A stretch of DNA of 47,664 nt from Parcubacteria group bacterium GW2011_GWA2_36_10. Its GTDB lineage: Bacteria > Patescibacteriota > Patescibacteriia > UBA1558 > GWA2-36-10. Location: assembly GCA_000991205.1 (NCBI GenBank), contig LBRC01000001.1, forward strand, positions 1 to 47,664, given 5' to 3'. Shown here piece by piece: positions 4,622 to 37,260 of this stretch. The notes beneath the pieces were generated by a model. That model worked only from the letters and a program-made list of their open reading frames with translations, ran no database searches and was not told where the DNA came from. Both the position numbers and the translations under genes were made by a program. Within the stretch, counting starts at the first letter, position 1, and the number at the start of each line of letters is the position of its first letter.

Positions 4622-5859
4622 TTAATTATTTATTAATTCACGATAATAATTAATTTGTTTTTCAATCAAAATTTTGGAATTATAATTAGCCAAAACATGC
4701 TGACGACCATTAATAGAAAACTCTTTCCATTGTTTTCTATTTTTTATTGCCAAAAGTATTTTCTCTGCCAAAACATTATAATCATTTTCTGGGGCCAACC
4801 AACCGTTGTATCCTTCTATGACCTGTTCTGGCAATCCACTGTGCTTAGTCGTTATCACTGGCACACCAGACGCTAAAGATTGTGATATAATGAGATTCAT
4901 ATTCTTATAAATTATTCCATATCGCCGTTCTTGGCGGTTTTAGATGGCTGAATAAATAAATCAATATTTTTGAAAAAATTTAAAACTTCTTCAACTTGCA
5001 TATAACCATGATAAGTGACTATATCATTTATATTTAAATCAGTTGTTAGCTTTTTTAAATCTTCCTCTAAAGGTCCACCGCCAATAATATGACATTTTAT
5101 ATTTTTAGCGGTCTTTTTTTTGACAATTTCCAAAGCTCTCAATAAATCATCGAAGCCTTTCTTTTCAACAAATCTACCAACAGAAGCAATATCTATACTA
5201 TCTGAATTATTCACTCTTGATTGAAAATGATACTCTTCTACATCAATGCCGACTGGATGAACTATTACTTTGTCCGCATCGAAACCATACCGCACAACTC
5301 TTTGCTTCATATCTTCTGACATGACAAAAAATAAACTACCTATTTTTTTTAACTTATCATAATAACTTTTACCTTTAGTTTTGAAAAGATGACTTACATC
5401 ATAACCATAAAATGTAGTGATAATCTTTACTTTTATATTTAATATTTCTCTGATTATTAAAAATTTATTGGCAGTAGTGCCAAAATGACAATGCACAATA
5501 TCAAATTTCTTACCCAAAAATGGCTCTATCCAAAATAATAGTTTTAAAGATAAGGCGTTTCGTCCATATTTTTTAGCATTAAAAACATCTTTCAATAATG
5601 CCGGTTGAGAAAATAAAATTCTCAAAAACTTAGGGGCAGCCAAAATTATTCTCTCTATCCAGCTATGAGGCCAAACTAGATAATGCGTTCTTTGTTGCAT
5701 TTTATAATCAAAAAACTTTTGACTAATATTATGGTCAATTTTTACTTTGTCTAAAGCAAATATCTGCACATCTATTCCATGATCTAATAGACCCGCTACT
5801 TGATCAATAATAAATGTGGAAATAGTTGGAAAATCTCCTACAATAAAAGCTACTTTCAT
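4622..5859 (-). pseudogene. GT4 (group 1) glycosyltransferase interrupted by a stop plus frame change inside the conserved C-terminal sugar-nucleotide-binding motif
   Basis: The 315-aa ORF ends ...FIQPSKTAKNGDME*. The 92-aa ORF in another frame resumes MNLIISQSLASGVPVITTKHSGLPEQVIEGYNGWL. In intact GT4 enzymes PS..E.G....EAMA.G.PV is one continuous motif. Start coordinates 5859 and 4900 differ modulo 3. Confidence 0.6.
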
Positions 5860-6959
5860 TTGTAAAATTCCTTAATGGATTTAATAACATAATCAATTTC
5901 TCCGTTGGTCATCTCTGGATAAATAGGCAAAGAAACTATTTCTTGCATAATTTTCACTGTCTCTAGTAAAGCGTAATCTTTAACTTTTAAAAAAGCATAA
6001 GCTGGTTGTTGAAAAATTGGCTTAGGATAATGCACGCCAGTTTGCACACCGTGTGTATTTAAAAAATCACGAAATTTTTCTCTGCTTTGGCATCGAATCA
6101 CAAAAAGATGCCAAACTGCTTGATAAATTTTATCATTTTTCGGTGGCAAAATGATTGGCAAATTTTTTAAACTAGCTAAATACATACTAGCTATTGCCTC
6201 TCTACGTTGATTCCATTTGTCTACCTTTTTTAAATCTGTATTTAAAAAAGAAGCTTGTATTTCGTCTAAACGACTATTACCGCCTTCATAAATATTATTA
6301 AATTTAGCCTCTTCGCCATAATTTCTCAAAGCTTTAATCTTTAAAGCTAAGTCTTTATTTTTAGTCACAATCGCACCCGCGTCACCAAAAGCACCAAGAT
6401 TTTTAGTGGGGTAAAAACTAAAACAAGCAATATCGCCAAAAGTACCAACTTTTTTATGCTTATAGATAGCTCCAAAAGCTTGTGCCACATCTTCTACGAC
6501 GTATAAAGAATGTTTTTTAGCTAATGATAAAATACTTGTCATATCAGCTGGTCGCCCATATAAATGCACTGGTAAAATAGCTTTTGTTTTTTTAGAAATT
6601 TTCTTTTCGATTAAAGCTACGTCTATATTAAAATCATCAGGATTAACATCGACAAAAATTGGTGTAGCACCAGTCATACGGATAGCAGAAATCGTAGGTG
6701 TAGCGGTATTAGCTACTGTAATTACCTCATCACCATTACCGATATTTAAAGCTTTTAAAGCTAAAAATATTGCGTCTGTGCCAGAATTTACACCAATGGC
6801 ATACTTGATATCTAAATAAATTGCTAAATTTTTTTCAAAATTATCTAATTCTGGGCCTAAAATAAACCAACCATTTTTAAAAACTTTTTCTATGGCTAAA
6901 TTAATATCTTTTTTATTGTTCTGATATTTACGAACAAAATTGTTAAATAAAACTTTCAT
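5856..6959 (-). CDS. DegT/DnrJ/EryC1/StrS-family PLP-dependent sugar aminotransferase (FdtB/QdtB/TylB-like by context)
   Basis: 367 aa. Motifs: LDNFEKNLAIYL, AIGVNSGTDAIFLALKAL, FSFYPTKNLGAFGDAGAIVT (Lys-containing PLP motif). ATGA overlap with the downstream gene. Confidence 0.9.
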   Translation of the reverse strand: MKVLFNNFVRKYQNNKKDINLAIEKVFKNGWFILGPELDNFEKNLAIYLDIKYAIGVNSGTDAIFLALKALNIGNGDEVITVANTATPTISAIRMTGATPIFVDVNPDDFNIDVALIEKKISKKTKAILPVHLYGRPADMTSILSLAKKHSLYVVEDVAQAFGAIYKHKKVGTFGDIACFSFYPTKNLGAFGDAGAIVTKNKDLALKIKALRNYGEEAKFNNIYEGGNSRLDEIQASFLNTDLKKVDKWNQRREAIASMYLASLKNLPIILPPKNDKIYQAVWHLFVIRCQSREKFRDFLNTHGVQTGVHYPKPIFQQPAYAFLKVKDYALLETVKIMQEIVSLPIYPEMTNGEIDYVIKSIKEFYK

Positions 6960-6967
6960 AGTTTATT

Positions 6968-8188
6968 TTATATTTTTATATACTTTAAAAATTCATTATA
7001 ATCTCTAATATAATCTGCTTCATCGTAATAATCGGCAGAAAAAACTAAAATTACACAATCATTAGAAAAATTAGACATTTCATGCCATAGTTTAACTCCT
7101 AACCTAATGCCATAATATGGACTATCTAAAATTAATTCTTGCTTATTTGCACCATCATCCAATAATAGTTTAAAACTTCCGTTAACACAAAAAATGTATT
7201 GTTCTAATTTTTTATGAGCATGTTTGCCTCTGATGGCGGTTTGGTTGCCTAAATTCGTTATATAATAAACCCTTTTGATATCAAATGGCACGCTTCTTTG
7301 TGATTCAGCAATCACCAGATTACCATCAGCATGATCATCGAAATACTTAAGTCTCACCACGCCAGAATGTTTGACTTTGATATTATCATCTTGACTATCT
7401 GTAATATTTTCTTTTTTTCTCGCGACAAAAAGAATCTCGAAACCAAAATTTTTAGAAAAAAATCTATTAGTAAATTTATCTAAAAATTTAGTCACGCGAT
7501 TAATTGCTTTACCTAAAAATTTAAAAAATGGGCTAATATACTTTAATCTAAAAACACCGTAAGCTGGATAAAAACCATCTTCAGAAACTAATAAGAGATC
7601 ATTTTTTATTACTAAATCTTTTAAATCACTGTGAGAATATGATCTTTCAAAATGATAAAGATATTTTTTTCTACTTAATTTTATCAATAATTTATAAATA
7701 GAGTGAAAATTATATTTATTCACACCAGATACCATCATCAATCCACCAGGCTTTAAAATTCTCTTCATCTCCCTAATAGCGTCTGAATCCCTCGATAAAT
7801 GTTGAATAACCACATCACAAAATATTAAATCAAAATGATTATCTGGAAATGAAAAATTAAATATATCTTCTTGTTTCACCTTCATGTTACTCAAGCTAGA
7901 CCATTGAACTAAATTTTTCATAAAATCCACCGACGACTGCACTATATCACTTAAGACAACTTCTGCCTGAGGGAAATCACGCGCTATTTGTAAACCATAT
8001 CTACCACTACCAGAGCCAACGTCTAATACCTTAAGATTATCTACTTTTGGTATATATTTTTTAAAAACAGGATAGCCTTCCAAAAATAAACGTTGCGTAA
8101 AAAGTGATGTAAAATCTGACTTGGCTTGTCTTTGCCAAAAAGCACCCCAAACCTGATTTACGTCTTCTTGATTTATAACATTTTTCAT
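6968..8188 (-). CDS. fusion protein: class I SAM methyltransferase (N-terminal) + FdtA/QdtA/Tyl1a-type dTDP-4-keto-6-deoxyhexose 3,4-ketoisomerase cupin domain (C-terminal)
   Basis: N-terminal domain: VLDVGSGSGRYG ... FDLIFCDVVIQHL ... LKPGGLMMVS. C-terminal domain: FDIKRVYYITN...RGKHAHKKLEQYIFCVNGSFKLLLDDG...LDSPYYGIRLGVKLWHEMSNFSNDCVILVFSADYYDEADYIRDY. From memory this closely follows the FdtA sequence pattern, including the HAHKK histidines. Confidence 0.75.
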   Translation of the reverse strand: MKNVINQEDVNQVWGAFWQRQAKSDFTSLFTQRLFLEGYPVFKKYIPKVDNLKVLDVGSGSGRYGLQIARDFPQAEVVLSDIVQSSVDFMKNLVQWSSLSNMKVKQEDIFNFSFPDNHFDLIFCDVVIQHLSRDSDAIREMKRILKPGGLMMVSGVNKYNFHSIYKLLIKLSRKKYLYHFERSYSHSDLKDLVIKNDLLLVSEDGFYPAYGVFRLKYISPFFKFLGKAINRVTKFLDKFTNRFFSKNFGFEILFVARKKENITDSQDDNIKVKHSGVVRLKYFDDHADGNLVIAESQRSVPFDIKRVYYITNLGNQTAIRGKHAHKKLEQYIFCVNGSFKLLLDDGANKQELILDSPYYGIRLGVKLWHEMSNFSNDCVILVFSADYYDEADYIRDYNEFLKYIKI

Positions 8189-9690: not shown

Positions 9691-9694
9691 TGCT

Positions 9695-10550: not shown

Positions 10551-11396
10551 TTATTTTTTGATAATACCAAATCCCCTATATCTATTGGTATACTTTACAT
10601 TAATTTCTTCTAAAAAATTATCAAAAGCCTTATTCCATTTTATATCATCTGACAATAAAAAACCATTATAAGACAATTTTGGCCAAATTGTCTGATATTC
10701 AAAAAACATATATTCATAGCTGTGATCACTGTCATGATAAAAAATATCAAATTGTTCTAAACCTTCAATTAGTTTGGGTAATTCTATTTTAGAGTCCCCT
10801 AAAATCAATTGCCAACGTGACCGCAAATAATTTGGCACTATCCAACCCGGTGTCTGACCTTCTGGCACAAAAGCATTTAATTCTGTATTCCCCTCACTAG
10901 TGATATAAGAGCCTGGCTTTTCGTTAGCATAAAATTTTGGCAGATCTATTGAGTATAGTTTTCCCTTACCATTTTCGTATAACGCCTGCAAGATAGATGC
11001 TGATGATCTGCCGCTTGCTACCCCTGTCTCTATGACAATGTTTGGCTTTTTCATCTTAGTCATAGTATATAACATCATGATATCAAAATCACCAGAATGA
11101 CCCACTGAAAAATGTTTTTTAAAAATTTGTGATTTTCTAAAATTATTTAATTCATTAATAGCTTCATGCCCAAATAATTTAAATAAAATCTCTTTAGCTT
11201 TTAAATAATCCTTTCTTTTCAGTCTTGGCTCTAAAAATATTTTCCAATTAGCAATATTTCTTAAAAATACAATAACTAATCCCAGCAAAGGAATTGTTTT
11301 TAATTTTCTATAAATCTTTCTGATAATTTCCATCATATATTTAAAACTATCTACAATGAGGGCATCTCTTACAAATCTCAAGATTTCTCTTGCCAT
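10551..11396 (-). CDS. class I SAM-dependent methyltransferase (O-methyltransferase / Methyltransf_24-like)
   Basis: 281 aa. IVIETGVASGRSSASILQAL...GKLYSIDL...HDSDHSYEY...GFLLSDD. The real start is probably the MM at residues 21-22 (about 11336), which removes the 50-nt overlap with the upstream ORF. Confidence 0.65.
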   Translation of the reverse strand: MAREILRFVRDALIVDSFKYMMEIIRKIYRKLKTIPLLGLVIVFLRNIANWKIFLEPRLKRKDYLKAKEILFKLFGHEAINELNNFRKSQIFKKHFSVGHSGDFDIMMLYTMTKMKKPNIVIETGVASGRSSASILQALYENGKGKLYSIDLPKFYANEKPGSYITSEGNTELNAFVPEGQTPGWIVPNYLRSRWQLILGDSKIELPKLIEGLEQFDIFYHDSDHSYEYMFFEYQTIWPKLSYNGFLLSDDIKWNKAFDNFLEEINVKYTNRYRGFGIIKK

Positions 11397-12195
11397 TCGA
11401 CAAACCTTCGTATAAATCCCTTACTTCGTCACTTAATAATATCTCTTCAATGCTCTGCGTATTTAAATCACCGAAAACATTCTGTCTTTTCCAATCCCAG
11501 CAACACAAAGCCAGCTTGCAATCATGGGTAACTAACACCTCATTTAATGGCGCTAGACATGGCCTAGTGGAACCATTTTCTGGTAGTTCATATATTTTCA
11601 TTCTATCATCTAAGATAATAGGGGTAACTTTAAAGGGAATATTAAGTTTAATTTTAGAAAGTCTTTCAAATTCTAACGGATTATAAGAAGATACCCTGAT
11701 GATACCTACGCCATTTTTTTCTAACTCCTCGGCTAATGTTTGGTCAAAATAAAAACCATTTGATTGTATGGCTATTTTAGCTTTTGGCAACATTTCTCTA
11801 GTTTTTTTGATAAACATCATTAATCTTGGGTCTATACATGGCTCATTATAGACATCAAAAGCAATATAGCCTCGATAATCATTTATTTTTAAAGATTCTA
11901 AAACCTTATAAACAATATTTTCTGACAATATCTTTTTTTCACCAGCACAATTTAATGGGCACTTAGCATGAATAGTAGCGTAATTACAAATATTAGATAA
12001 TTCAAAAGCGATTCTTTTGGTCTTATCAAAAGCCCCCTTACTAGCTTCGACGTATCTAAGATCATCTTTGGTGCCATTAAAATTTTGTTTTCTTAAAGAG
12101 TACAATTTAGCTCTTAATAATCTAAATGTTTTACCAATAAAATTGTTTGTATTCTTTTTATAAAAATTGTACAAAAAACGCTTATACTTGTTCAT
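11347..12195 (-). CDS. radical SAM-like protein with C-terminal SPASM/twitch Cys cluster and non-canonical N-terminal Cys spacing
   Basis: 282 aa. FELSNICNYATIHAKCPLNC gives C-x8-C-x3-C instead of CxxxCxxC. YNEPCIDPRL sits where GGEPLL is expected, and QSNG is present. The C-terminal part CLAPLNEVLVTHDCKLALCCWDW...EICKRCPHC is SPASM/twitch-like. Confidence 0.6.
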   Translation of the reverse strand: MNKYKRFLYNFYKKNTNNFIGKTFRLLRAKLYSLRKQNFNGTKDDLRYVEASKGAFDKTKRIAFELSNICNYATIHAKCPLNCAGEKKILSENIVYKVLESLKINDYRGYIAFDVYNEPCIDPRLMMFIKKTREMLPKAKIAIQSNGFYFDQTLAEELEKNGVGIIRVSSYNPLEFERLSKIKLNIPFKVTPIILDDRMKIYELPENGSTRPCLAPLNEVLVTHDCKLALCCWDWKRQNVFGDLNTQSIEEILLSDEVRDLYEGLSNGKRNLEICKRCPHCR

Positions 12196-14167: not shown

Positions 14168-15244
14168 CTATAAAGAAAATTCTATTTTTATTTGCTTAAC
14201 TAAAGCATGTTTACTAAAATACTGCTCAATTTTTCTTCTACCATTTTCTCCTAAATTATTCAAAGCCTCTAAATTATTGCTGACATATTTTATCTTTTCC
14301 GCCAAATCTTTAGCATCTGCCATCTCACAATAAATCAAATCTTTTTTATCTTCTAAATACAGTTCTATTGCCCTGTTTCTACCGGTGACAACAATTTTTT
14401 TACAAGCCAAACATTCCAAAACTTTATTAGCTATAACTCTTTTAGCTTTATTGGTATTACCAAATATACCTAAACAAAAAGAAGATAATTTAATATAGCT
14501 AATAATCTTACTGTTCTCAATTCTATCGATAAAAATAATATTATCTAAATTTAAATCACGATAAAGTTGATCTATTTTTTTTCTTGTCTGGCCATTACCA
14601 ATTAAAATAAACTGCATATCTTTTTGCTCACGTAATATATCAGCCGCTTTTATAATATATTCCACACCTTGTAATGGTATATATAAGCCAAAAAATAAAA
14701 CATTACATTTCTTGGGATCAAAAATATTTTCCACACTAGGATTAATCTTGTCTACAAAATCTAAATCTATGCTGATTGGTATGACAATTTTTTTAACCCT
14801 TTCTTTAATATGAAATTTTTCAATAAAATAATCACGATGTAAATTAGTGTCAAATATTATTATATCAGAGGATAAGCAAGAAAAATAATCCAATAAATAA
14901 TAATATAAAGCCTTAACGGAAAATCTATTTGCTAAAGCTCTATCAAAAATATACGTATCATAAATAGAAATAAAAGCATCAAATATTAATTTAATTTTTT
15001 TTGGTTTAAAAAATAATCTATAAAAAAATAATAAAAAAGCTAACTTCTGGCTAGTTTGTAAAAATAATATATAATCATATTTATTACCATTAAGTATTAA
15101 ATTCTTTAAAATAAAAATTTTATTAGCAGAAGTAGAAAAATTATTTTCTGTAACTTCAAAAACTTCACCCAGACTTTCTATCAATGCCTTGTTTCTGGGA
15201 TATTCTTGATTATAGGTACCAGTAATTAATAATTTACTTCTCAT
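14168..15244 (-). CDS. GT-B fold glycosyltransferase (group 1-like, divergent)
   Basis: 358 aa. The Rossmann-like C-terminal half is VLFFGLYIPLQGVEYIIKAADIL...FILIGNG...KAKRVIANKVLECLACKKIVVTG. There is no clean EX7E motif, so the assignment is weaker. Confidence 0.55.
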   Translation of the reverse strand: MRSKLLITGTYNQEYPRNKALIESLGEVFEVTENNFSTSANKIFILKNLILNGNKYDYILFLQTSQKLAFLLFFYRLFFKPKKIKLIFDAFISIYDTYIFDRALANRFSVKALYYYLLDYFSCLSSDIIIFDTNLHRDYFIEKFHIKERVKKIVIPISIDLDFVDKINPSVENIFDPKKCNVLFFGLYIPLQGVEYIIKAADILREQKDMQFILIGNGQTRKKIDQLYRDLNLDNIIFIDRIENSKIISYIKLSSFCLGIFGNTNKAKRVIANKVLECLACKKIVVTGRNRAIELYLEDKKDLIYCEMADAKDLAEKIKYVSNNLEALNNLGENGRRKIEQYFSKHALVKQIKIEFSL

Positions 15245-16247
15245 CTTTTATCCTCCAACTAGCTGGTAAGTTTTTTAAAATCTCAATATTAGAGAATACT
15301 TTAGTTTCTCTAGCGCCATGTTTCTTTGCCCAAGTAGCCATTCTTTTGACACCTTCGGCTAATGAATGAGCATCTTCATAAGCTAATAATAATCTAACTT
15401 TACTGTGATCAGAATAAGCGGTATGTACTTCATTTCTAGCTTCTAAATATTTAACCTCTACTTCTTTTTCCATAGCCTCAAAAACATATTTTACTATATC
15501 ATTAACAGAATATGGCTCATCAGCACCAATATTAAAAACATGATTATATGCTTCTTGTTTATTAATTGCTTGTGCCATGGCTTGAGTCACGCCTTTAACA
15601 TAAGTAAAGGCTCTTTTTTGCGTGCCATCACCAAAAATAGTAATTGGTTTATCTTGCATGATTTGGTTCATAAAAATGCCTAAAACATTTCTATACTTAT
15701 CTCCAATATTTTGTCTTTCTCCATAAACATTATGTGGTCTAAAAATAATATAATCTAAACCAAACATTTCTTTACAGGCTTTGAGTTCTAATTCAATGGC
15801 ATATTTAGCGATACCATAAGAGTCTTCTGGTCTTGGAGTAGTGGTTTCTAGCATTGGTAATTGATTAGCGCCATATACAGCGATTGAAGATGTAAAGACA
15901 AAACATTTGACATCATGATTAACCGAAGCATTAATTAAATTAATACTACCTAATAAATTATTATGATAATTAAAGCTTTTGATAAAGTGACTTAGGCCTT
16001 CAGCGGCATAAGCAGCTAGATGATACACATAGTCAAATTTATGTTCAGTAAATAAAGCTTGAACTAATTGAGCATCATTTATACTGCCTTCTATGAATAA
16101 AGCTTTAGAATTAACATTTTCTTTAAAACCACCACTTAAATCATCTAGCACAACTACTTTATGACCTAATTCAATAAGCTCATCTACTAAGTGAGAGCCG
16201 ATAAAGCCTGCCCCACCGGTGACTAAAATTTTGGTTTGTGTGTTCAT
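15234..16247 (-). CDS. NAD-dependent sugar-nucleotide epimerase/dehydratase (extended SDR)
   Basis: 337 aa. ILVTGGAGFIGSHLVDEL (GxxGxxG) and catalytic YGIAKYAIE (YxxxK). The precise reaction cannot be called from sequence alone. Confidence 0.85.
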   Translation of the reverse strand: MNTQTKILVTGGAGFIGSHLVDELIELGHKVVVLDDLSGGFKENVNSKALFIEGSINDAQLVQALFTEHKFDYVYHLAAYAAEGLSHFIKSFNYHNNLLGSINLINASVNHDVKCFVFTSSIAVYGANQLPMLETTTPRPEDSYGIAKYAIELELKACKEMFGLDYIIFRPHNVYGERQNIGDKYRNVLGIFMNQIMQDKPITIFGDGTQKRAFTYVKGVTQAMAQAINKQEAYNHVFNIGADEPYSVNDIVKYVFEAMEKEVEVKYLEARNEVHTAYSDHSKVRLLLAYEDAHSLAEGVKRMATWAKKHGARETKVFSNIEILKNLPASWRIKDEK

Positions 16248-16264: not shown

Positions 16265-16876
16265 TTATTTTTTAGCTACCAAAACCATATTCCAAGGAAC
16301 TGGTTGTTTATAATCAATAATTTTAAAATATTTACTTAATAAATCAAGAAATCTTGCCCTACTCCAATGATTAATATGTCCTGGGGTATTACCAAAATCT
16401 TTTATATACTTGCCCCTCATAAGATTCATGAGCCTCCACAAAGGTTCATTAGGCACACTTAAAAGACAAAAATTATTAGTAACTCTTGCTAATTCTCTTA
16501 AAGCTTCATCTGGATTATCCAAGTGCTCTAAAACCTCTAAGCATACCACCAAATCAAAACTATTATCCGATCTCTGCAAATCATAAATAGATTCTCGTTT
16601 AATATTAATATCAGGATTTTTAATTTTTGCATCATCAACTAAGTTTTGTTCATAATCAGACGCTTCTATTAATTGTGTTGGGAAAAAATTTCTTAAGTAC
16701 TGAGTAGAAAATCCATGTCCGCAACCAACCTCTAAAACTGAATCGATATTTTTATTTTTAACTAAATTAGCTAAGTTTTTATAAAAATTCTTAATTAACC
16801 AATTTGTAATAAAATTAGTTTCGGTATATTTTTTTTCAAAATTTTCTTTACTTGTTATATTCATTTTTTTTCGCAT
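16265..16876 (-). CDS. class I SAM-dependent methyltransferase
   Basis: 203 aa. VLEVGCGHGFST, FDLVVCLEVLEHL. Confidence 0.8.
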   Translation of the reverse strand: MRKKMNITSKENFEKKYTETNFITNWLIKNFYKNLANLVKNKNIDSVLEVGCGHGFSTQYLRNFFPTQLIEASDYEQNLVDDAKIKNPDINIKRESIYDLQRSDNSFDLVVCLEVLEHLDNPDEALRELARVTNNFCLLSVPNEPLWRLMNLMRGKYIKDFGNTPGHINHWSRARFLDLLSKYFKIIDYKQPVPWNMVLVAKK

Positions 16877-17816
16877 AATATAATATTTTTTCTTGATTCC
16901 ATCTAATTCTTGCTAGCATATCTGATAAAAAACCAACAACGACTAATAAAATACCTAATAAATTCAAAAAAGCACCGGAAAATATCACTGACTTATAAGG
17001 AGTAAAAGATGATGTCTGTAAAAAATATAAAAAAACAAAAGCGTCTAATAATAAACCAATGCTAAAAATAAATGTACCTAAAAACCCAAAAAATTTCATT
17101 GGTTTATAATCACGTAAAGTTTTAAAGTTTATTTTTAATATATTCCAAGCATACTTAAATAAATTACTAGCCACTCTTGATTTTCTATTAAAAAAATAAC
17201 GTACATGGATAGGAACTTCTTTAAAACTTAAATTTTTAAAACTCAAATCTATAATTGTTTCTTGGGTATAGGTAAAATCACCAAATAAATTTAAATTGCA
17301 CAGAGCCTCTGCGTTATAAGCCCGAAAACCACAACTCACATCAAAATATCTTATACCAGTAAGCCAAGTAACTAAATTAGCCACTGTTTTATTTCCCCAA
17401 ATTTTAATTTTTGGCATATTTACTGGTATAAAAGATCTATCGACGAAACGAGATCCCAAAACAACATCATGTCCACCCGTAACCATAGCTTCTATTAATA
17501 ATATTATTTCCTGTGGATCAAATTGACCGTCTGCATCAATAGTAACTAAAATATCTGCCTTTCTTTTTATCGCCTCTTCAACGCCAGTTTGAAAAACAAA
17601 ACCAACGCCTTTATTTTTAGGGTGAGAAATCAAGCTGGCTAACTTCGAGTCTTTCACTATTTTAGCTGTCTTGTCTTGGGAACCATCATCAATAACTAGA
17701 ATCTCTACATTTGTCACATCAGCAATTTTGAGTGGCACTGCCTGTAAAACTTTTAAAATGTTTTCTTCTTCATTATAAGCTGGTATCAAAACCAGCACTT
17801 TTTTATCTTTTAACAT
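16848..17816 (-). CDS. GT2 polyprenyl-phosphate glycosyltransferase (GtrB/ArnC/Dpm1-like) with two C-terminal TM helices
   Basis: 322 aa. VLIPAYNEEENI, ILVIDDGSQDKT, TIDADGQFDP. The C-terminal helices are FFGFLGTFIFSIGLLLDAFVFLYFL and SGAFLNLLGILLVVVGFL. Confidence 0.85.
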   Translation of the reverse strand: MLKDKKVLVLIPAYNEEENILKVLQAVPLKIADVTNVEILVIDDGSQDKTAKIVKDSKLASLISHPKNKGVGFVFQTGVEEAIKRKADILVTIDADGQFDPQEIILLIEAMVTGGHDVVLGSRFVDRSFIPVNMPKIKIWGNKTVANLVTWLTGIRYFDVSCGFRAYNAEALCNLNLFGDFTYTQETIIDLSFKNLSFKEVPIHVRYFFNRKSRVASNLFKYAWNILKINFKTLRDYKPMKFFGFLGTFIFSIGLLLDAFVFLYFLQTSSFTPYKSVIFSGAFLNLLGILLVVVGFLSDMLARIRWNQEKILYYAKKNEYNK

Positions 17817-19704
17817 ACTGTTTGAAATATAAAATTATTTTTTCTAAAGCGCTATAAATATATAAAAACATTATTGGTATAATTGGTAAAAAATATCTAG
17901 GATTCAAAAAGGTAGGCGCCAATAAACTAATAAAGCCTAAAATTACCCCAAAATATAACAACAATATCCAGCCTTTTTCCTTATTATTCTTGGTAACTGT
18001 TATTATGCCAGAAGCCAATAAAAAAAGGAATAGCAGCAATGGTATCAATAAAATTGGCCCATAATGTAAAGGATATTCTATAATTTTAAATAAATAGCGC
18101 AAACCAAAGACGGGGCCACCATAATCAACGGTATCATACACAGAGCCTATAGATGAACCATAAGACATAAAATTGATATACGCCTGGAGAACTGCAAATG
18201 GCAAGCCACCCAAAATAAAATAGCTAATATTCTTATATTGTTTAAAGTATGAGAATATGCCGAGATAAACTGGAATGATTATAAAATTTTGTAATCTTGT
18301 TAAAGTGGCTAAACCAACTAAAATACCCAGCATAAAGGCAAAAGATATTTTAGTATTTTTATAAAATTTTAAAAATAGCAAAAGCGCTGATAACATTAAA
18401 ATAGTAGAAAAAGGATCAGAAATTGCATAAAAATACATTAATTGTCCAAAACGACTAATTTTAAAATTATTAATCACCACGCTATCCTGAGCAAAAAAAT
18501 GAAATAAATAATAAAAAAAGTATGGATAAATAACAAACAGAGATGCTATGCCTAAAGCCTTTTTTTTATTGTGCAAAAAATCTTTAGCCAAAATATACAC
18601 TAAACAAACACTGACTACAAAAAATATATTATTTATAATAGCCACTGGTAAAATAATATCCATTATATCTTTTGCGTGCCATAAACAAACCAATGGAGCT
18701 AATAATAAAGAAAAACCTATGGGAAATAAATTTTCCACAAAGTGCCAACTCAATAAAGATTGTGCACCTTTAAAATAATCCAATTCGTCACCAGAAAAAC
18801 CAAAGAATAGAAAGCTATTATTTTCACCTAAATAAGGAAAGTTATTTTTTGCTAAAAATAAAATTAATAACCTCACTAAGATTAAGCTACTTATAGCTAA
18901 TAACCAATTTTTATTAATTTTAAACTTTAACATATTTTTGCTGATTTCTCTTAGCTTATAAAAAAATGGATTTAAATACGTTTTAAACTTCATTAAACTC
19001 AAGTCTCTTAAAATTTCTATCCTGGGTATAGACATTTTATCTTGCGTAGAATACAAAGTTCTTCCTCCGGCAAAAGCTAAAAGTACCCCCTCTTTGCTTA
19101 AAGCTTTCTTAGCTAGGTCATTATACTTATTGTGTGGATAAGCGACTATTTTTAAAGAATCATTAGGCCCAATAATGTTCTGTAAACTAATCAAGGCTTT
19201 TTGATATTCTTCCCTAATTTCTTCAGGACTCAATGTATCTACGTCTTTATGATGAGCTAAATGATTTGCAATACACCACCCTTCTTGTTTTAAGGCTAAA
19301 ATTTCAGTTTCATTCAGCATAGCTAAATTTTTATTGGCTACTTTTTGAGCAAAATTATTATCACGACCAATATAATCAGTGGCAATAAAAACTGTAGCCA
19401 CAAAACCATATTTTTTTAATATCGGCAAAGCATTAGTGTAATTATCTTGATAACCATCATCAAAAGTTAAAATAAAACTTTTTTCTGGCCATTGACCGTT
19501 GATAATATCTAATGACGTGATACTGTGATAGCCATTTAATTTTAGGTATTTAATTTTACTCTCAAAATCTTCCAGGCCAAGGCTAAGAGATGCATCTTTT
19601 TGACTAATTGAATGAAATAAAAAGACCGGCAAAAATTTCTTATTTTTAACTGGAAAAAATAAATTTAAAAGATAACAAATAAAATATATGAAATAGTCTT
19701 TCAT
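17803..19704 (-). CDS. fusion protein: NodB-type polysaccharide deacetylase (CE4) domain + GT-C fold (ArnT/PMT-like, GT39/83-type) membrane glycosyltransferase
   Basis: 633 aa. The N-terminal domain has LTFDDGYQDNYTNALPILKKYGFVATVFI and ANHLAHH. After residue ~260 there are >=10 hydrophobic helices, with a first-loop acidic motif FSGDELDYFKGA typical of GT-C enzymes. 14-nt overlap with the GT2 gene downstream. Confidence 0.7.
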   Translation of the reverse strand: MKDYFIYFICYLLNLFFPVKNKKFLPVFLFHSISQKDASLSLGLEDFESKIKYLKLNGYHSITSLDIINGQWPEKSFILTFDDGYQDNYTNALPILKKYGFVATVFIATDYIGRDNNFAQKVANKNLAMLNETEILALKQEGWCIANHLAHHKDVDTLSPEEIREEYQKALISLQNIIGPNDSLKIVAYPHNKYNDLAKKALSKEGVLLAFAGGRTLYSTQDKMSIPRIEILRDLSLMKFKTYLNPFFYKLREISKNMLKFKINKNWLLAISSLILVRLLILFLAKNNFPYLGENNSFLFFGFSGDELDYFKGAQSLLSWHFVENLFPIGFSLLLAPLVCLWHAKDIMDIILPVAIINNIFFVVSVCLVYILAKDFLHNKKKALGIASLFVIYPYFFYYLFHFFAQDSVVINNFKISRFGQLMYFYAISDPFSTILMLSALLLFLKFYKNTKISFAFMLGILVGLATLTRLQNFIIIPVYLGIFSYFKQYKNISYFILGGLPFAVLQAYINFMSYGSSIGSVYDTVDYGGPVFGLRYLFKIIEYPLHYGPILLIPLLLFLFLLASGIITVTKNNKEKGWILLLYFGVILGFISLLAPTFLNPRYFLPIIPIMFLYIYSALEKIILYFKQYVKR

Positions 19705-20864
19705 TGAATAAAATTTAAAATATTATTTGCTCTTTTTTGCCAATCATATTGCTGAACTTTTAGATGAGCGCTAAAAGAAATTTTTTCTACTAACCCTTCA
19801 TCACTAACAGCTAATATGATTTTATTTTTTAAATCTTCTAAATCACCCACCCGATAAAACAAACAACTCGTATCATCTAAAATTTGCTTTATGCTAGGTA
19901 GATTTGAAGCTACTATTGGTCTTTGACTAGCCATGTATTCAAACATTTTTAAAGGGGTCATAAAAAATTCATAATGCGCAATTTTAGGAAACGGCATTAA
20001 TAAAACATCACTGGCTTTTTGTAGAATTGCTAAAATATTTTGCTTTTGTTTAGGTAAAAAATAAACTTTATCTTCAATTTCCAAATCTATCGCTATTTTT
20101 TGATAATATTGAATATCTATTTGGTTGCCACCAACTGCCAATAAAATAAAATCTTGACTTAATTTAGACAAAACAGTTATCACCTCTTTTAAACCCTTCT
20201 CATTTCCCATGGTTTTAAAACTACCAGAATAAAAAAGAATTTTTTTATCTAAAATATTATTAATATTAAAAATATTATTTACTTTTAATCTGGCTTGTTT
20301 TTTATCAATTGTTAAATCAAAAATACTTAAATCTACTCCATTTGGAGAAACCAATATTTTGCCAGCTACAAAATTATGTTTTATGAATTGTTCTTTAATA
20401 AAATAATTAGTTACGACAATCTTATCTACAAATTTTAATAGACTAAGATGAAAAAATTTTCCTTTAGCAAACCAATCATGACATTCATATACCGTTTTTC
20501 TATGCTTTAAAATAGCTAAAAAACAAAATAAAGAGCTACGACTATACACAATAGCTTGTTTATCAATTTTGATAAAAATTAGTTTTACAAAAAATAGTAA
20601 ATTTTGTAACAAAAATTGCCAGTAGCGCAAAAAATTAGGCAAAAAAGCTAACTCTGGTGTATGAATAATTTTATGTTTAAAGTTATTTTTTAAATTATAA
20701 AAACTAAAAATATCCTCTGTTATATGATTCTTTCTCTTTGGAGACCATAATTCTACTGCCACACCTAAATTAGCAAACTGTTCACACATTTTACTTGATT
20801 GATAACCATAAGCCTTTTCTGTGGGCATACGAGAATCTAAGATATAAATTAGTTTACTAATCAT
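19701..20864 (-). CDS. GT4-like (group 1) glycosyltransferase
   Basis: 387 aa. LLAVGGNQ..., LLMPFPKIAHYEFFMTPLKMFEYMASQRPIVASNLPSIKQIL (degenerate EX7E region). Confidence 0.7.
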   Translation of the reverse strand: MISKLIYILDSRMPTEKAYGYQSSKMCEQFANLGVAVELWSPKRKNHITEDIFSFYNLKNNFKHKIIHTPELAFLPNFLRYWQFLLQNLLFFVKLIFIKIDKQAIVYSRSSLFCFLAILKHRKTVYECHDWFAKGKFFHLSLLKFVDKIVVTNYFIKEQFIKHNFVAGKILVSPNGVDLSIFDLTIDKKQARLKVNNIFNINNILDKKILFYSGSFKTMGNEKGLKEVITVLSKLSQDFILLAVGGNQIDIQYYQKIAIDLEIEDKVYFLPKQKQNILAILQKASDVLLMPFPKIAHYEFFMTPLKMFEYMASQRPIVASNLPSIKQILDDTSCLFYRVGDLEDLKNKIILAVSDEGLVEKISFSAHLKVQQYDWQKRANNILNFIQ

Positions 20865-20866
20865 AA

Positions 20867-21484
20867 TTAATGAAACAAAAAATTAATTTCATTCAAAACT
20901 TGTTCTACACTTTTATCATTTGTAATGATAAAAAATTGCACTTTAGTATTAGCTAAATTTTCTAAAAAAACTAAATTATTTGCTTGACTAGCTTTTAACC
21001 AAATGTCTTTTATCTTTTCATCTTGAAATTGACGAAGACCATGTCCCCTATTTAATAATCTTTTTTGCCTTTCTTGATCATCTACTTGAAAAATAAATAA
21101 TTTGTCAGGTAAAACAATATTTGCTAAATATTTTTGAATAATTTCCCAATCTACTTGCTGTTCAAACAAAGAAATAATATTCTGAAAATAACCCTGATCT
21201 ATTAAGGCGTATTGATATTTCAAAACTTTTTGATATTTTGCATTGCAATGCAAAAATAAATTCATTAATTTATAATAAAATATCTGCCAATTATTTGAAT
21301 TACGAAAAATATAAAATAATAATTTAAAAAATTTAAAAGGACTTTTTAAAAAAAATAAAAAATTATACCACAAAAGTTCTATTTTGCTATTAATTTTTAT
21401 TCTCTTAAATTTTCCCTGACTTTCTATGGCTCTAGCTATAGTACTTTTGCCAGTACCTGGTAAGCCGTACAATTCTACAATCAT
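20867..21484 (-). CDS. P-loop NTPase, small kinase-like protein of unknown substrate
   Basis: 205 aa. Walker A at the extreme N-terminus (LYGLPGTGKSTIARAI), similar in size and layout to nucleoside/sugar kinases. No further motif recognised. Confidence 0.5.
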   Translation of the reverse strand: MIVELYGLPGTGKSTIARAIESQGKFKRIKINSKIELLWYNFLFFLKSPFKFFKLLFYIFRNSNNWQIFYYKLMNLFLHCNAKYQKVLKYQYALIDQGYFQNIISLFEQQVDWEIIQKYLANIVLPDKLFIFQVDDQERQKRLLNRGHGLRQFQDEKIKDIWLKASQANNLVFLENLANTKVQFFIITNDKSVEQVLNEINFLFH

Positions 21485-22212
21485 TGTTTTTTAAATTTTA
21501 CTATATATGCTTCTGTGAATAATTGACTGATAATATTTAATTGAAAATTACTAAATAAATTAAAAATTAAATTGTTTATAAACACCGATTTAAAAATAGG
21601 GAAAGTCATCACAGCTGGATAAAACTCAATATTCACAAAACCAATTTTGACTAAAAGTTTTCTTAAATCTTTTGGCCTAATTTGCTGACGATGCATGATG
21701 GGAATTTTTTTACCTAAAATATGATAACGCCAATATTGAGGATTTTTAGTTATAATAAAACCATATTTATCGTGATTTAATAAACTAAAAATTTTAGTAA
21801 GCACTGGAGTTTTTTTAGGAAAATACTCTAAGACTCTAGAAGAAAAAAATAAATCATATGTTTTATCAGTTTGCCAAGCTAAAAAATCACTTTCAAAATA
21901 AGAAAATTTTTCTTCACCAAAAACTTTTTTAGACAAATCTAACATTTCTTTAGAAATATCAACTAAATCAAAATTTGCCCCACAAAACTTAGCTTGCAAC
22001 ATCTTGGTCCAAGTGCCCGCACCAGGACCAAGTTCTAAAATATTATTAATTGCTGGCTCAATTTGTAAAACATGTTTTTTGATAATTAACAACATCATTT
22101 GAAAACCAGCTTGCAATAAAGGTGTGGCAAACCAACGATTATACTCATAATCATTTTTATATTTATCAATTACAATTTTATTATAAATTTTTTTAATACC
22201 TTGTTGATCCAT
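21481..22212 (-). CDS. class I SAM-dependent methyltransferase
   Basis: 243 aa. ILELGPGAGTWT motif I, YDLFFSSRVLEYF. Confidence 0.75.
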   Translation of the reverse strand: MDQQGIKKIYNKIVIDKYKNDYEYNRWFATPLLQAGFQMMLLIIKKHVLQIEPAINNILELGPGAGTWTKMLQAKFCGANFDLVDISKEMLDLSKKVFGEEKFSYFESDFLAWQTDKTYDLFFSSRVLEYFPKKTPVLTKIFSLLNHDKYGFIITKNPQYWRYHILGKKIPIMHRQQIRPKDLRKLLVKIGFVNIEFYPAVMTFPIFKSVFINNLIFNLFSNFQLNIISQLFTEAYIVKFKKQ

Positions 22213-27107: not shown

Positions 27108-28280
27108 ATGAAAAAACTAGAAAATAAGAAAATATTATACTTAGTCACTCAAACTAAGTGGGGTGGAGCACAAAAATATGTGCTAGAATTAGCTGAATAT
27201 TTTAGCCAAAATAACGAGGTTCACATTGCTTTTGGTGAAATTAATGAGCAAAATCAAGAGTTTTTGGCTCAATGCCAAAAAATAGGTGTCAAAACTATCC
27301 CGATCAAAAACTTAGTCCGCAATATCCAGCCCAGCAAAGAAATAAACGCCTTTCTAGAGCTCAAAAAGCTACTAGATAGTGGCAAATACCATTTAGCTCA
27401 TCTAAACAGCTCTAAGGCTGGTTTAATAGGCTCTATTGCTGCTAGTATACACAATCTGAACCCACTAAATACGCGCTTGAGGCTGATTTATACCGCTCAC
27501 GGTTTTGTCTTTAATGAGCCATTAAATAAAATAGAAAAAACCATCTATAAGATGTCCGAGAAATTTTCTACCGCTGTGGAAAATGCAATCATCACTGTCT
27601 CTGACTATGATAAACAAAGTGCTATAGAACACAAGATCTGTCCTGCTCACAAAATGTTTACTATTCATAATGGCTTAGATTTTAATAAATATAATTTTTT
27701 ATCAGCCGAAGACGCTAAAAAAGAATTAAATTTAGACGAAAATAAAACTTACTTCGGCACAATCGCTAGTTTTTACAAAACTAAAGGCCATACTTATTTG
27801 CTAGAAGCGATAAAAATATTTCTAGAAACTCAAAACAGAGAGGCTTATCACTGGATTTTAATCGGTGATGGTCCAGAACAAAAAAACATTGAAGAGTTAA
27901 TCAAGAAATATAATTTAGAAAAATATATTACAATTATTTCTCCTAAAAATAACGACTGGAAATATTTAAAAGCTTTTGATTATTTTATCCTGCCCTCGGT
28001 CAAAGAAGGCTTGCCATATACTCTCTTAGAAGCAGGCCTTGCCAAAATACCAGTGATTGCGACTCAAGTTGGCGGTGTGCCAGAAATTATCACCGATCAT
28101 CAAACCGGCCTCTTAGTGACACCGGCTAATCCTCTATCTTTAGCAAATGCTATGAAAGAAATAACTGAAACAGAGCTAGTAAATAATTTTATCGAAAATA
28201 ATTATCAAAATATTATAGACAATTTTGATCTAAATCAAACTATCCAAAAAACTGAAGAGTTATATTTAAAATTATTCTAA
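27108..28280 (+). CDS. GT4 (group 1) glycosyltransferase
   Basis: 390 aa. KWGGAQKYVLELA, ILIGDGPEQ, FILPSVKEGLPYTLLEAGLAKIPVIATQVGGVPEII. It is one of only three plus-strand genes in the window. Its 3' end overlaps the convergent ORF by 9 nt. Confidence 0.9.
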   Translation: MKKLENKKILYLVTQTKWGGAQKYVLELAEYFSQNNEVHIAFGEINEQNQEFLAQCQKIGVKTIPIKNLVRNIQPSKEINAFLELKKLLDSGKYHLAHLNSSKAGLIGSIAASIHNLNPLNTRLRLIYTAHGFVFNEPLNKIEKTIYKMSEKFSTAVENAIITVSDYDKQSAIEHKICPAHKMFTIHNGLDFNKYNFLSAEDAKKELNLDENKTYFGTIASFYKTKGHTYLLEAIKIFLETQNREAYHWILIGDGPEQKNIEELIKKYNLEKYITIISPKNNDWKYLKAFDYFILPSVKEGLPYTLLEAGLAKIPVIATQVGGVPEIITDHQTGLLVTPANPLSLANAMKEITETELVNNFIENNYQNIIDNFDLNQTIQKTEELYLKLF

Positions 28281-30272
28281 ATTAAGCACCTTACTATTAT
28301 AAGACTCTAATATAAAATCGATTATTTTAGTATCACCTTCACTAGGCACAAAACCCCTGTCTATGGCCTGTTGATAATAATCACGTGCTGTGTTTATATC
28401 TCCTAAAAATAAGTGAATGCGAGCTAAGTACCAATAACCATAGTAAAGTTGGGTGTCATCTTTAACGATTTTTTCCATCAACACTCTTGCCTCGTCAATC
28501 TTTTCTGATTGTACTAGATAATTAAAATACAAAAAATTAAGTTCTTGTTTTTCATCACTAATATTACTAGCTCTTGCAAAAATATTCTCTATCTCTGCAC
28601 CCTTATCTTCTCCTAAGGTATTTAAGATAATGTTCACTCTCATTAAAAAAAGATAATCAAACATATTACTTTGATTATATTTTTCTAAATTTTTTAAAAT
28701 CTCTGTGTTCAGACTAAATAACAACTCTACATATCTCTCTTTTTGTTCCGTGGTTATGCTAGCTGCTACCAAATATTCAGCATAGTCTCTAACGATCTCT
28801 CGATGCATTGGGCCTAAAGAGCCTAAGCTATTCTCAATTAATAACAAAGCCTCTGTGATATGTTTTTCATGAATCAGAAATCTCACATTCTCATCTAAAC
28901 GATTGGCAGTATAAACTTTGATATTGCCATAAAATAATGCCCAAGAAAAGAAGATAGCGAATAACAAAATAAAAACATTCACAACCAAAAATTTTTTAGA
29001 CGAAATCACACCATCCTCTTCTGTATCTTTAGTCATGTAAGCTATAAAAGCTAGGGATAAAAATAGCCAAAGATAAAAAGTTGGATGTAAAAAAGAAAAA
29101 AGTAATTGAGTCATTATAGAAAAAAGTAAAGATAAAAACAAGGAAAAAAATATTTTTCTTCTTGATTTCTTAATTTTTTTAATGACCTTATAAATAGCTG
29201 AAGCAAAAATTGCTAAAAAAGACCCAAAACCCAAGACACCTAGGCCAACTAAAATATCTAAATAATAATTGTGTGCGTAATCAAAAAAGGTATCACCCCA
29301 TCCACGGCGCAAAAATTCAGCTTTATAGTTACTATTAAAAGCTGTGCTAAAATTATTAAACCCCCAACCCAAAGGTTTTTCCTTAAAAGCCCCTATTGCC
29401 ACTTGGGATACTAACACACGATTACTAACACTGCCTCCTAGATTTTTTATATCCGATAAATTATTTACTATGGGGATATTTTTTATTATCTTATTATTAG
29501 GAAAAAATATACCGGCAAAAATAAAAGCTAGGCTTATAACCATTAGTGCTACTAAAGACAATTTTATTTGCTTATTTTTAGCTACAAAAATATACACAAG
29601 AACAAAAATATACACACCAACCAAAAAAGAGAGAAAAGGTCCCCTGCTACCAGAAGCGAATATACCTAAAAGTGCTAAAAGTGCTAAAAAGTAAGCACCA
29701 TAACGCTCCCACTTTACATTCGTCAAAAAACTAAATAAAAAACAAAACCAAAATAAAAATAAAGAATACTCACCAAAATATATAGAATTACCCAATGTAC
29801 TTGGCACCCTAGAAATGTCTAAAATTTTCCACTCATAAAAACCCTTACAAAGAATAAAAAAAGAAACAACGAAAAGAAAGCGTAAAAAAATACGCCAATC
29901 TTTTTCCTCAAAGATAGTCATCAGTAAAACAGCGAAAATAAAGTAGTGGATTAAACTAAAAATTCCATCCATCCTCTCGTGCCCATTAAAAAAACTAAAA
30001 TTCCAATCTACTCCAAAATAAGAAATAATAATAGTTAAAAATAAAAATAAAAAACCACTCATAACTAGAAAATTATTTCGTGGTAAATATTCTCTATGTT
30101 TATAAACCAAAATCAAATACAAAATGACTGCCAAATCAATTAAAGATCTAAAATAAATAACTTTTGTGAAAACAAATGGAAAAATTACCCCCACATCCAC
30201 GATTAAGGGGCTAAGTAATGTAGCTAATAATAAAAATTTAATTGAATAAAGAATTTTATTTTTGCTAAACAT
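28272..30272 (-). CDS. Wzy_C-family membrane protein with C-terminal TPR domain
   Basis: 666 aa. SGSRGPFLSFLVGVYIFVL, EKPLGWGFNNFSTAFNSNY, FFDYAHNYYLDILVGLGVLG. C-terminal TPR-like segment: YGYWYLARIHLFLGDINTARDYYQQAIDRG. Confidence 0.8.
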   Translation of the reverse strand: MFSKNKILYSIKFLLLATLLSPLIVDVGVIFPFVFTKVIYFRSLIDLAVILYLILVYKHREYLPRNNFLVMSGFLFLFLTIIISYFGVDWNFSFFNGHERMDGIFSLIHYFIFAVLLMTIFEEKDWRIFLRFLFVVSFFILCKGFYEWKILDISRVPSTLGNSIYFGEYSLFLFWFCFLFSFLTNVKWERYGAYFLALLALLGIFASGSRGPFLSFLVGVYIFVLVYIFVAKNKQIKLSLVALMVISLAFIFAGIFFPNNKIIKNIPIVNNLSDIKNLGGSVSNRVLVSQVAIGAFKEKPLGWGFNNFSTAFNSNYKAEFLRRGWGDTFFDYAHNYYLDILVGLGVLGFGSFLAIFASAIYKVIKKIKKSRRKIFFSLFLSLLFSIMTQLLFSFLHPTFYLWLFLSLAFIAYMTKDTEEDGVISSKKFLVVNVFILLFAIFFSWALFYGNIKVYTANRLDENVRFLIHEKHITEALLLIENSLGSLGPMHREIVRDYAEYLVAASITTEQKERYVELLFSLNTEILKNLEKYNQSNMFDYLFLMRVNIILNTLGEDKGAEIENIFARASNISDEKQELNFLYFNYLVQSEKIDEARVLMEKIVKDDTQLYYGYWYLARIHLFLGDINTARDYYQQAIDRGFVPSEGDTKIIDFILESYNSKVLNLE

Positions 30273-37256: not shown

Positions 37257-37260
37257 AAAA

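Follow-up and report, generated by a model that had tools for sequence, protein, structure and literature searches.

The window analysed here, the whole 47,664-nucleotide stretch of contig LBRC01000001.1 from Parcubacteria group bacterium GW2011_GWA2_36_10, encodes a protein in which a de-N-acetylase domain of carbohydrate esterase family 4 (CE4) is joined to a membrane module that we assign to the GT-C glycosyltransferases. An overlapping gene for a family 2 glycosyltransferase (GT2), of the type that charges polyprenyl phosphate with a sugar, follows it. This CE4–GT-C architecture is rare but recurrent, and the fusion is genuine. New here are the covalent joining of the two domains, the predicted cytoplasmic placement of a PplD/PgaB-type CE4 domain, and a GT-C family that carries no annotation; a full-text literature search for CE4/GT-C fusions found no description of one. 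We propose, with a probability of slightly under one half, that the GT2 and the GT-C module form a transmembrane glycosylation system in which the N-acetylhexosamine (HexNAc) of the lipid-linked donor is de-N-acetylated in the cytoplasm.

A first-pass annotation of the same DNA had likened these genes to the ArnC, ArnD and ArnT enzymes of lipid A modification. Judged from their sequences, all three Arn-like enzyme classes are represented, with active sites that appear intact, but the kinship of the CE4 domain to ArnD did not hold, and the identity of its substrate is more contested than that comparison implied.

The CE4–GT-C fusion and its GT2 partner

The two genes and their parts are:

17803..19704, minus strand: CE4–GT-C fusion gene, one uninterrupted open reading frame (ORF) of 633 aa comprising an N-terminal hydrophobic helix, the CE4 domain, a basic linker and a GT-C module with 10 transmembrane (TM) helices
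19645..19704, minus strand: N-terminal hydrophobic/amphipathic helix, residues 1-20, MKDYFIYFICYLLNLFFPVK; helix at 2-16 in the model, then KNKK
18970..19635, minus strand: CE4/NodB de-N-acetylase domain, residues 24-245, with the permuted motif order of the PplD/PgaB/IcaB type; predicted cytoplasmic
19450..19467, minus strand: TFDDGY motif, residues 80-85; Asp82 is predicted to position the catalytic water and Asp83 to be a metal ligand
19249..19266, minus strand: NHLAHH motif, residues 147-152; His148 and His152 are predicted metal ligands
18907..18969, minus strand: Lys/Arg-rich linker, residues 246-266, with 6 Lys/Arg (K/R) residues, before TM1; a cytoplasmic marker
17806..18906, minus strand: GT-C glycosyltransferase module, residues 267-633 (367 aa), 10 TM; by fold and profile homology a distant PMT_2/GT39/ArnT relative
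18775..18792, minus strand: GDELDY in the first external loop, residues 305-310; Asp306 is the presumed catalytic or donor-binding acid
18295..18297, minus strand: Arg470 codon; candidate polyprenyl phosphate ligand with Arg603
17884..17904, minus strand: NPRYFLP in the last external loop; Arg603 is near-invariant and, together with Arg470, a candidate polyprenyl phosphate ligand
16848..17816, minus strand: polyprenyl-phosphate glycosyltransferase GT2, 322 aa, with DAD at residues 94-96 and two C-terminal TM helices; translationally coupled to the fusion

Both genes lie on the minus strand and the fusion is transcribed first. The GT2 gene begins inside the 3' end of the fusion, its ATG at 17816 standing 14 nt before the end of the fusion TAA stop (17803); the coordinates of both ORFs and the 14-nt overlap had been given exactly in the first-pass annotation. 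At the other end, the fusion ATG (19704) and the TGA stop of an upstream family 4 glycosyltransferase (GT4) gene overlap as ATGA. With the methyltransferase gene that comes next after the GT2 gene and overlaps it by 29 nt, the GT4, fusion, GT2 and methyltransferase genes make up one translationally coupled run.

Word-indexed homologue searches returned almost no relatives of the membrane module; a profile of this C-terminal module, searched exhaustively with HMMER, yielded 442 representative proteins at E < 1e-3. A search for the architecture, which had been suggested at the outset, showed that a CE4 domain stands in front of the GT-C module in 11 clusters (50% identity) among the best 150 of the 442 (P0002, P0003, P0004, P0077, P0083, P0086, P0090, P0093, P0095, P0100 and P0111), while most other members among the best 150 are stand-alone proteins of ~380 aa. 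Full-length fused homologues share 84% (P0002), 42% (P0003) and 29% (P0004) identity with the window protein. P0003 occurs on three contigs independent of one another, including a Saccharibacteria chromosome of 742 kb, and its flanking genes follow the order of the window, from a methyltransferase and a P-loop protein through GT4, fusion and GT2 to a further methyltransferase and, beyond a small GtrA-like gene, two GT4 genes. A missed stop or frameshift, which had been raised as a possible source of the apparent fusion, and an assembly artefact are both excluded, because the fused architecture recurs across independent assemblies; an ORF of 633 codons is also far beyond chance in DNA of 29% G+C.

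Sixteen related loci were inspected. Three are duplicates, leaving 13 distinct loci, of which 11 extend past the GT-C gene and, with the window, make 12 informative loci. Among these the two domains are also found apart. At locus L014 the GT-C protein P0075 (4200-5363) passes as 'stand-alone', but an out-of-frame remnant upstream of it (L014:3830-4216) encodes the last ~95 CE4 residues at 39% identity; the catalytic N-terminal half of the CE4 domain and the upstream GT4 gene are gone. By its sequence the remnant looks like the decay of a formerly fused gene, which suggests that the CE4 domain can be lost from a fused ancestor. At L006 the CE4 is a separate gene of 263 aa, 4.5 kb downstream of the GT-C/GT2 pair.

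The CE4 assignment rests on PF01522, which matches residues 73-207 of the fusion in Pfam (E 1.7e-22; 80.1 bits against a cut-off of 23.1 bits). The closest solved structure is PplD of Streptococcus pyogenes (6dq3), by sequence (E 6e-12) as well as by fold in Foldseek (E 1e-11; template-modelling score 0.86 per target), followed in the ranking by PgaB, IcaB and the Bacillus proteins BC0361 and BA0330. PplD is a linkage-unit de-N-acetylase from a permuted CE4 subgroup that lacks MT4 and in which an Arg from another strand holds the catalytic Asp. The TFDDG and H..HH motifs that had been picked out by eye in the translation were located at residues 80-85 and 147-152, and the catalytic residues are all present on alignment: H31, D82, D83, H148, H152 and R228 do not vary between the window protein and any of its fused homologues, and their PplD counterparts are H105, D167, D168, H223, H227 and R302. 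Because this residue set is kept and matches the proven residues of PplD, the domain should, on sequence grounds, be catalytically active. Homology to ArnD was rejected (BLASTP against E. coli ArnD, E 0.52), and no entry named ArnD stood among the CE4 sequence hits or the 50 fold matches listed, in a library not checked for an ArnD entry; the domain is of the PplD/PgaB/IcaB type instead. A second CE4 at L013, which adjoins a GT4 gene, belongs to a different, canonical CE4 subgroup and is uninformative on the fused domain.

For the membrane module no Pfam or NCBIfam model scored above threshold (PMT_2, E 0.026, with 15 bits where 26.1 are required), there was no NCBIfam ArnT match, which leaves it outside the ArnT/PMT sequence families, and its profile found no match among PDB sequences. 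An AlphaFold (AF2) run on 4 sequences gave a membrane-domain predicted local distance difference test score (pLDDT) below 50; the model of the fusion built from an alignment of 102 sequences has a mean pLDDT of 94.3 and a predicted template-modelling score (pTM) of 0.82. Among the 50 Foldseek matches listed, the membrane proteins were all GT-C enzymes: STT3 (8age_A), PglB (6gxc), ALG3 (9s6r) and PimE (9dm5). The E-values for this part are modest, from 2.5e-4 (STT3 8age_A) to about 1e-2, with a template-modelling score of 0.48 per target for ALG3. The family profile also reaches proteins annotated GT39/PMT/PMT_2, and hhalign aligned it with 15 PMT/PMT_2-annotated proteins (PF13231/PF02366) over 320 columns at 99.7% probability (E 1e-25), spanning the Asp, TR and RY..P motifs and pairing Asp306 with their conserved D. 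Against E. coli ArnT alone the probability was 41%, over 167 columns; the profile comparison that the first-pass annotation had called for pointed to a distant PMT/PMT_2 relationship and left that to ArnT marginal. GDELDY aligns with the PDETRY motif of E. coli ArnT, with Asp306 opposite its D. Across 102 sequences of the family Asp306 is present in at least 90%, and D306, R470, Q507, N511 and R603 are near-invariant family-wide. The expectation of a GT-C domain with at least ten helices and an acidic GDELDY loop was borne out by the 10 TM helices and the fold and profile matches. We conclude that the module, as modelled, is a compact, previously unmodelled, distant member of the GT-C clan that lies outside every curated family. 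The family as a whole comprises 442 representative clusters with no Pfam model.

The same searches can be read as a sign that the module is not a glycosyltransferase at all, but a Wzy-like polymerase, a ligase or a transporter to which the CE4 domain is attached for localisation only. The lack of a Pfam family at threshold, together with a marginal match to Wzy_C_2 (E 0.038), the lack of any PDB sequence found by profile, and the modest Foldseek values would fit such a protein. They are countered by the uniform GT-C identity of the membrane matches listed, the long alignment to PMT/PMT_2 proteins, the constant pairing of the module with a polyprenyl-phosphate-sugar synthase and the presence of separate Wzy_C proteins in the same clusters, and we give this explanation scarcely any weight.

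PF00535 matches the GT2 with E 2e-23, its TM helices lie at about 239-268 and 274-305, and its full-length alignment with E. coli ArnC shows 27% identity (E 3e-17); a sequence search of the PDB gave Pyrococcus DPMS, ArnC and GtrB as the nearest solved structures. The earlier description of a GT2 with two C-terminal hydrophobic helices is confirmed, and on sequence it is a polyprenyl-phosphate glycosyltransferase of the ArnC/GtrB/DPMS type. Its best NCBIfam models were AglJ (121 bits against a cut-off of 325; 6e-35), PpgS (94.6 against 370; 5.9e-27), ArnC (55.7 against 529; 4e-15) and a haloarchaeal dolichyl-phosphate-hexose transferase that was likewise far below cut-off. All equivalog scores being under their cut-offs, orthology to ArnC, AglJ or PpgS is not indicated. 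The linked GT2 genes lead us to predict a polyprenyl-phosphate-linked sugar as the donor of the GT-C module.

Membrane topology and the proposed order of steps

The distribution of charge around the ten hydrophobic cores gives the protein a predicted orientation. Loops assigned to the inside carry 20 K/R in 59 residues, as against 9 in 142 residues of the outside loops; homologues have WLRKNK or WLRRNK at the position of the linker; and the first external loop, which bears D306, is 66 residues long and net acidic. Four fused homologues (P0090, P0093, P0095 and P0100) begin at the first CE4 β-strand, without a signal peptide or TM helix, and in two others (P0083 and P0086) the N-terminal helix is amphipathic and broken by Arg and Lys. 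The charge distribution and the leaderless homologues together support a CE4 domain in the cytoplasm, with D306, R470 and R603 at the outer face, and the N-terminal helix of the window protein is probably a membrane-surface anchor. This predicted arrangement, a cytoplasmic CE4 domain and an acidic first loop outside, is the one that the analogy to Arn requires and that an ArnD-like role needs, and it is unlike that of every characterised close CE4 relative: the fused domain is predicted not to share the extracytoplasmic location of PplD, PgaB and IcaB.

Those relatives suggest another arrangement, in which the N-terminal helix is a signal anchor and the CE4 domain acts outside the membrane, deacetylating the finished polymer or a linkage unit after transfer as PplD, PgaB and IcaB do. 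The closest relatives in sequence and structure are extracellular, and the N-terminal helix of the window protein is very hydrophobic. With a single TM helix between the CE4 domain and the Asp306 loop, however, the active-site loop of the GT-C module would then be cytoplasmic. The K/R distribution contradicts this arrangement as well, as do the four homologues that have no N-terminal hydrophobic segment and the charged residues that interrupt the helix in the other two, and we consider it very improbable.

Under the pathway that we favour, the GT2 would load an N-acetylhexosamine, probably, from a nucleotide sugar onto polyprenyl phosphate in the inner leaflet. The CE4 domain, held at the inner surface by the N-terminal helix and TM1, would convert this presumed substrate to polyprenyl-phosphate-hexosamine (HexN). 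A flippase, which in related loci is of the GtrA or Wzx type, would carry the lipid to the outer leaflet, where the GT-C module, through Asp306 and with Arg470 and Arg603 at the outer membrane boundary, would hand the free-amine sugar to a surface glycan. The acceptor is probably the Wzx/Wzy-type polysaccharide of the same 33-kb cluster. The order would be that of ArnC, ArnD, ArnE/F and ArnT, with the second and fourth steps on one protein.

Related loci and the surrounding glycan cluster

Three further genes of the window adjoin or lie close to the module:

19701..20864, minus strand: GT4 glycosyltransferase 'GT4c', 387 aa, identified by Pfam; its stop overlaps the fusion start
16265..16876, minus strand: class I S-adenosylmethionine (SAM) methyltransferase 'MT1', 203 aa, identified by Pfam; overlaps the GT2 stop by 29 nt and is a possible accessory of the module
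15234..16247, minus strand: GalE-like short-chain dehydrogenase/reductase (SDR) epimerase, 337 aa, PF01370; GalE is the best NCBIfam match, below cut-off

The relatives come from metagenome-assembled genomes (MAGs) of Saccharibacteria, Buchananbacteria and other Patescibacteria, and it was through them that the window, which carries no rRNA or other marker, was assigned to this group; a metagenome scan returned a single locus, a duplicate of L007. The association of GT2 with GT-C is constant. A GT2 gene lies no more than 4 genes from the GT-C gene in 12 of the 12 informative loci, usually overlapping the GT-C stop, and the linked GT2s have two C-terminal TM helices in all but L013, where the GT2 is fused to a methyltransferase. 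A GtrA gene (PF04138) accompanies the pair in L001, L007, L008, L013 and L014, the last consisting of a stand-alone GT-C, a GT2 and a GtrA. In the GT2/GtrA systems of Patescibacteria, this GT-C family seems to take the GtrC-like role.

GT4c is also a recurrent neighbour. Its orthologues adjoin or lie near the GT-C gene in 11 related loci (L007 and L012 being near-duplicates), at identities of 31-45% that track those of GT-C and CE4. In L016-L018 the order is GT4, Wzx, fusion, GT2, with Wzx directly upstream of the fusion. GT4c may build the acceptor or the CE4 substrate.

Several of these observations tell against deacetylation of the donor. Where the GT-C module is 36-44% identical to that of the window, the GT2 is only 24-28% identical, as against 40-45% for the GT4. 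The GT2 thus appears exchangeable and the GT4 the tighter evolutionary partner of the CE4–GT-C protein, a pattern that strict coupling on the donor side does not predict. Some 90% of the best 150 members of the GT-C family have no CE4 domain, and tblastn with three GtrA-like proteins from related loci found no recognisable GtrA/ArnEF-type flippase in the window. Moreover, the nearest characterised CE4 relatives act on extracellular glycans, and the domain is no ArnD homologue. The earlier proposal that the CE4 domain acts on the GT2 product is not supported as it stood; the co-diverging upstream GT4 makes deacetylation of the acceptor a serious alternative.

On that alternative, the GT4 adds HexNAc to a unit linked to undecaprenyl diphosphate or to a membrane glycolipid, the cytoplasmic CE4 domain deacetylates it, the product is flipped, and the GT-C module glycosylates it outside with the polyprenyl-phosphate-sugar of the neighbouring GT2. 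It is attractive for the ATGA coupling of GT4 to the fusion, the retention of the GT4 in the 11 loci and its divergence in step with CE4 and GT-C, in contrast to a GT2 that is exchanged from locus to locus, and the gene order of L016-L018 would suit it too. Polysaccharide-deacetylase-type enzymes are, in addition, documented on glycolipids (HexSDF and GpgSDF), and at L010 a gene with an MprF-like flippase domain overlaps the GT-C end. That same locus, however, keeps the GT4 yet has no CE4 within 10 kb; the GT4 has neither an informative family assignment nor a PDB sequence relative, and it may build an acceptor in which the CE4 domain has no part. The bacterial precedents that combine a deacylase, a GT2 and a GT-C all act on the donor. 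We hold acceptor deacetylation to be possible though doubtful, and retain donor deacetylation as the preferred reading.

The L010 gene just mentioned lies at L010:7185-8162 (PF03706), and the GT-C gene whose end it overlaps is a stand-alone one; the flippases HexF and GpgF, which serve amino-glycolipids, are of the same kind. At L007:3755-5198, and likewise at L008, VTC-domain and DUF4956 genes lie between the conserved GT4 and the fusion. Upstream of the GT4 in the window, a P-loop kinase-like gene and a second methyltransferase gene (20867..22212, minus strand) stand in the same order as in the Saccharibacteria locus L001.

Methyltransferases recur around the module, although clear orthologues of MT1 after the GT2 were found, among the loci compared, only in L001 and L015. 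At L008:7997-9088 a GtrA flippase domain is fused to a class I methyltransferase, and the GT2-methyltransferase fusion of L013 lies at 9512-11026; these fusions hint at a methyltransferase acting on the lipid-linked sugar. Two sulfotransferase genes (L006:3903-4769 and 7988-8932) flank the GT4/GT-C/GT2 trio in the Saccharibacteria MAG with the separate CE4, where deacetylation followed by N-sulfation is conceivable. The methyltransferases and the L006 sulfotransferases weakly suggest that the unmasked amine is re-derivatised. Homologues of the GalE-like SDR lie near the module in L004, L009, L013 and L016; the link is a weak one, and the enzyme might supply the nucleotide sugar, for example a 4-epimerised HexNAc.

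The module belongs to a larger locus. The window has a G+C content of 29%, and a single glycan gene cluster takes up about 33 kb of it, encoding a Bac_transf priming enzyme, Wzx, three Wzy_C proteins, DegT, FdtA, several methyltransferases and many GT4 enzymes. No RNA of the window came up in Rfam, and ribosomal markers were absent. An FdtA-type 3,4-ketoisomerase fused to a class I methyltransferase (6968..8188, minus strand) lies beside a DegT aminotransferase (5856..6959, minus strand), a pair that points to a methylated 3-amino-3,6-dideoxyhexose as a component of this glycan. The three large Wzy_C (O-antigen-ligase-like) membrane proteins are encoded at 1058..3163, 28272..30272 and 30955..33189, all on the minus strand; the last has a C-terminal TPR region and is followed by a separate TPR gene (30282..30950), and L016 and L017 have comparable Wzy_C-TPR genes close to the module. 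At 10551..12195 (minus strand) a SPASM-domain ORF overlaps a Methyltransf_24 ORF within the cluster, and at L014 radical-SAM and SPASM genes lie beside the GT-C/GT2/GtrA trio. Two ORFs of 1208 and 437 aa (33239..38574, minus strand) have no Pfam match and lie in a stretch with a G+C content of 39-40%, compared with 29% in the remainder; surface proteins and foreign DNA are both conceivable.

Comparison with known systems

The logic of a GT2, a deacylase, a flippase and a GT-C is well established, and the fusion extends this theme. The Arn pathway starts with a GT2 that attaches an N-acylated amino sugar to undecaprenyl phosphate; a deacylase then works on the lipid-linked sugar, which is flipped and finally transferred outside by a GT-C. 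LgmABC of Bordetella is a further precedent for donor deacylation ahead of flipping. The window system resembles Arn in the order and predicted topology of its enzymes, in the 27% identity of its GT2 to ArnC and in a first-loop motif that aligns with that of ArnT. It differs in that the deacylase is of another CE4 subgroup and fused to the GT-C, that the GT-C has only 367 aa and no large external domain, that neither an adjoining ArnA/ArnB-like formylation route nor ArnE/F is present, and that no lipid A is expected in the likely host lineage. FlmF2/NaxD/FlmK of Francisella is a relative of Arn. Patescibacteria are not known to have lipopolysaccharide.

The first-pass annotation had accordingly looked for an acceptor other than lipid A. 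This is reasonable, given that the closest relatives are MAGs of Saccharibacteria and Patescibacteria, but the logic was already known from PpgS/Rv3779 and from Gram-positive GT2/GtrA/GT-C systems. In mycobacteria the polyprenyl-phosphate-N-acetylgalactosamine (GalNAc) donor made by PpgS (Rv3631) ends as galactosamine (GalN) on arabinogalactan. As there, the GT2 and GT-C of the window would serve a cell-wall polysaccharide, on which PpgS and Rv3779 place GalN or GalNAc, rather than lipid A, and PpgS is the second-best NCBIfam match of the window GT2, though at 94.6 against 370 bits. The difference lies in the deacetylase, which is covalently attached in the window system.

To our knowledge, no deacetylase has been assigned in the mycobacterial GalN pathway. 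The fused architecture suggests the kind of enzyme to seek for this missing step.

In GtrA/GtrB/GtrC, CsbB/GtcA/YfhO and GacI/J/K/L, a GT2, a flippase of the GtrA or Wzx type and a GT-C decorate a surface polymer. Stand-alone members of the present GT-C family sit in just such trios, as at L014. The known systems have no deacetylase, whereas the window has no GtrA gene and its GT-C family has no Pfam or NCBIfam model.

The PplD, PgaB and IcaB enzymes work outside the cytoplasm, where polymers or wall-linked units are their substrates. The fused domain shares their permuted motif order, the catalytic His in an N-terminal YH strand and the Arg from a C-terminal strand, and differs in its predicted cytoplasmic site and its attachment to a GT-C. 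As a Rosetta-stone link, the fusion would connect a group of deacetylases known only extracellularly with a lipid-linked step on the inner side of the membrane.

In HexSDF of C. difficile and GpgSDF of P. aeruginosa, a synthase makes a HexNAc-lipid that is deacetylated to a cationic HexN-lipid and flipped. The window system resembles them in scheme; a glycerolipid as the target of its GT4 is hypothetical, as is any homology to HexD or GpgD.

Synthesis of the glycosylphosphatidylinositol (GPI) core employs the GT4 PIG-A, the deacetylase PIG-L, the GT-C PIG-M and the GT2 DPM1. The GT4, CE4–GT-C and GT2 core of the window matches these enzyme classes one for one, although the fold of PIG-L is LmbE-like, unlike CE4. 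With a flippase, the set could carry out a bacterial version of GPI-core or lipoglycan-anchor synthesis, in which the GT4 would make a HexNAc-lipid, the CE4 domain would turn it into a cationic HexN-lipid, and the GT-C would extend the flipped product with a polyprenyl phosphate sugar; the exposed amine could then be re-derivatised on the lipid by the methyltransferase adjacent to the GT2. We think this unlikely; if true, Patescibacteria would have an amino-glycolipid or lipoglycan anchor of a new class.

By sequence, the window system appears to belong to no named family: the equivalog scores fail, similarity to ArnD fails and similarity to ArnT is marginal. In scheme it would operate in the manner of Arn, Lgm and PpgS/Rv3779, as well as of the Gram-positive multi-component systems. 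Free-amine sugars alter surface charge, and a route to them is relevant to episymbiotic bacteria of the candidate phyla radiation (CPR), whose envelope chemistry is almost unknown.

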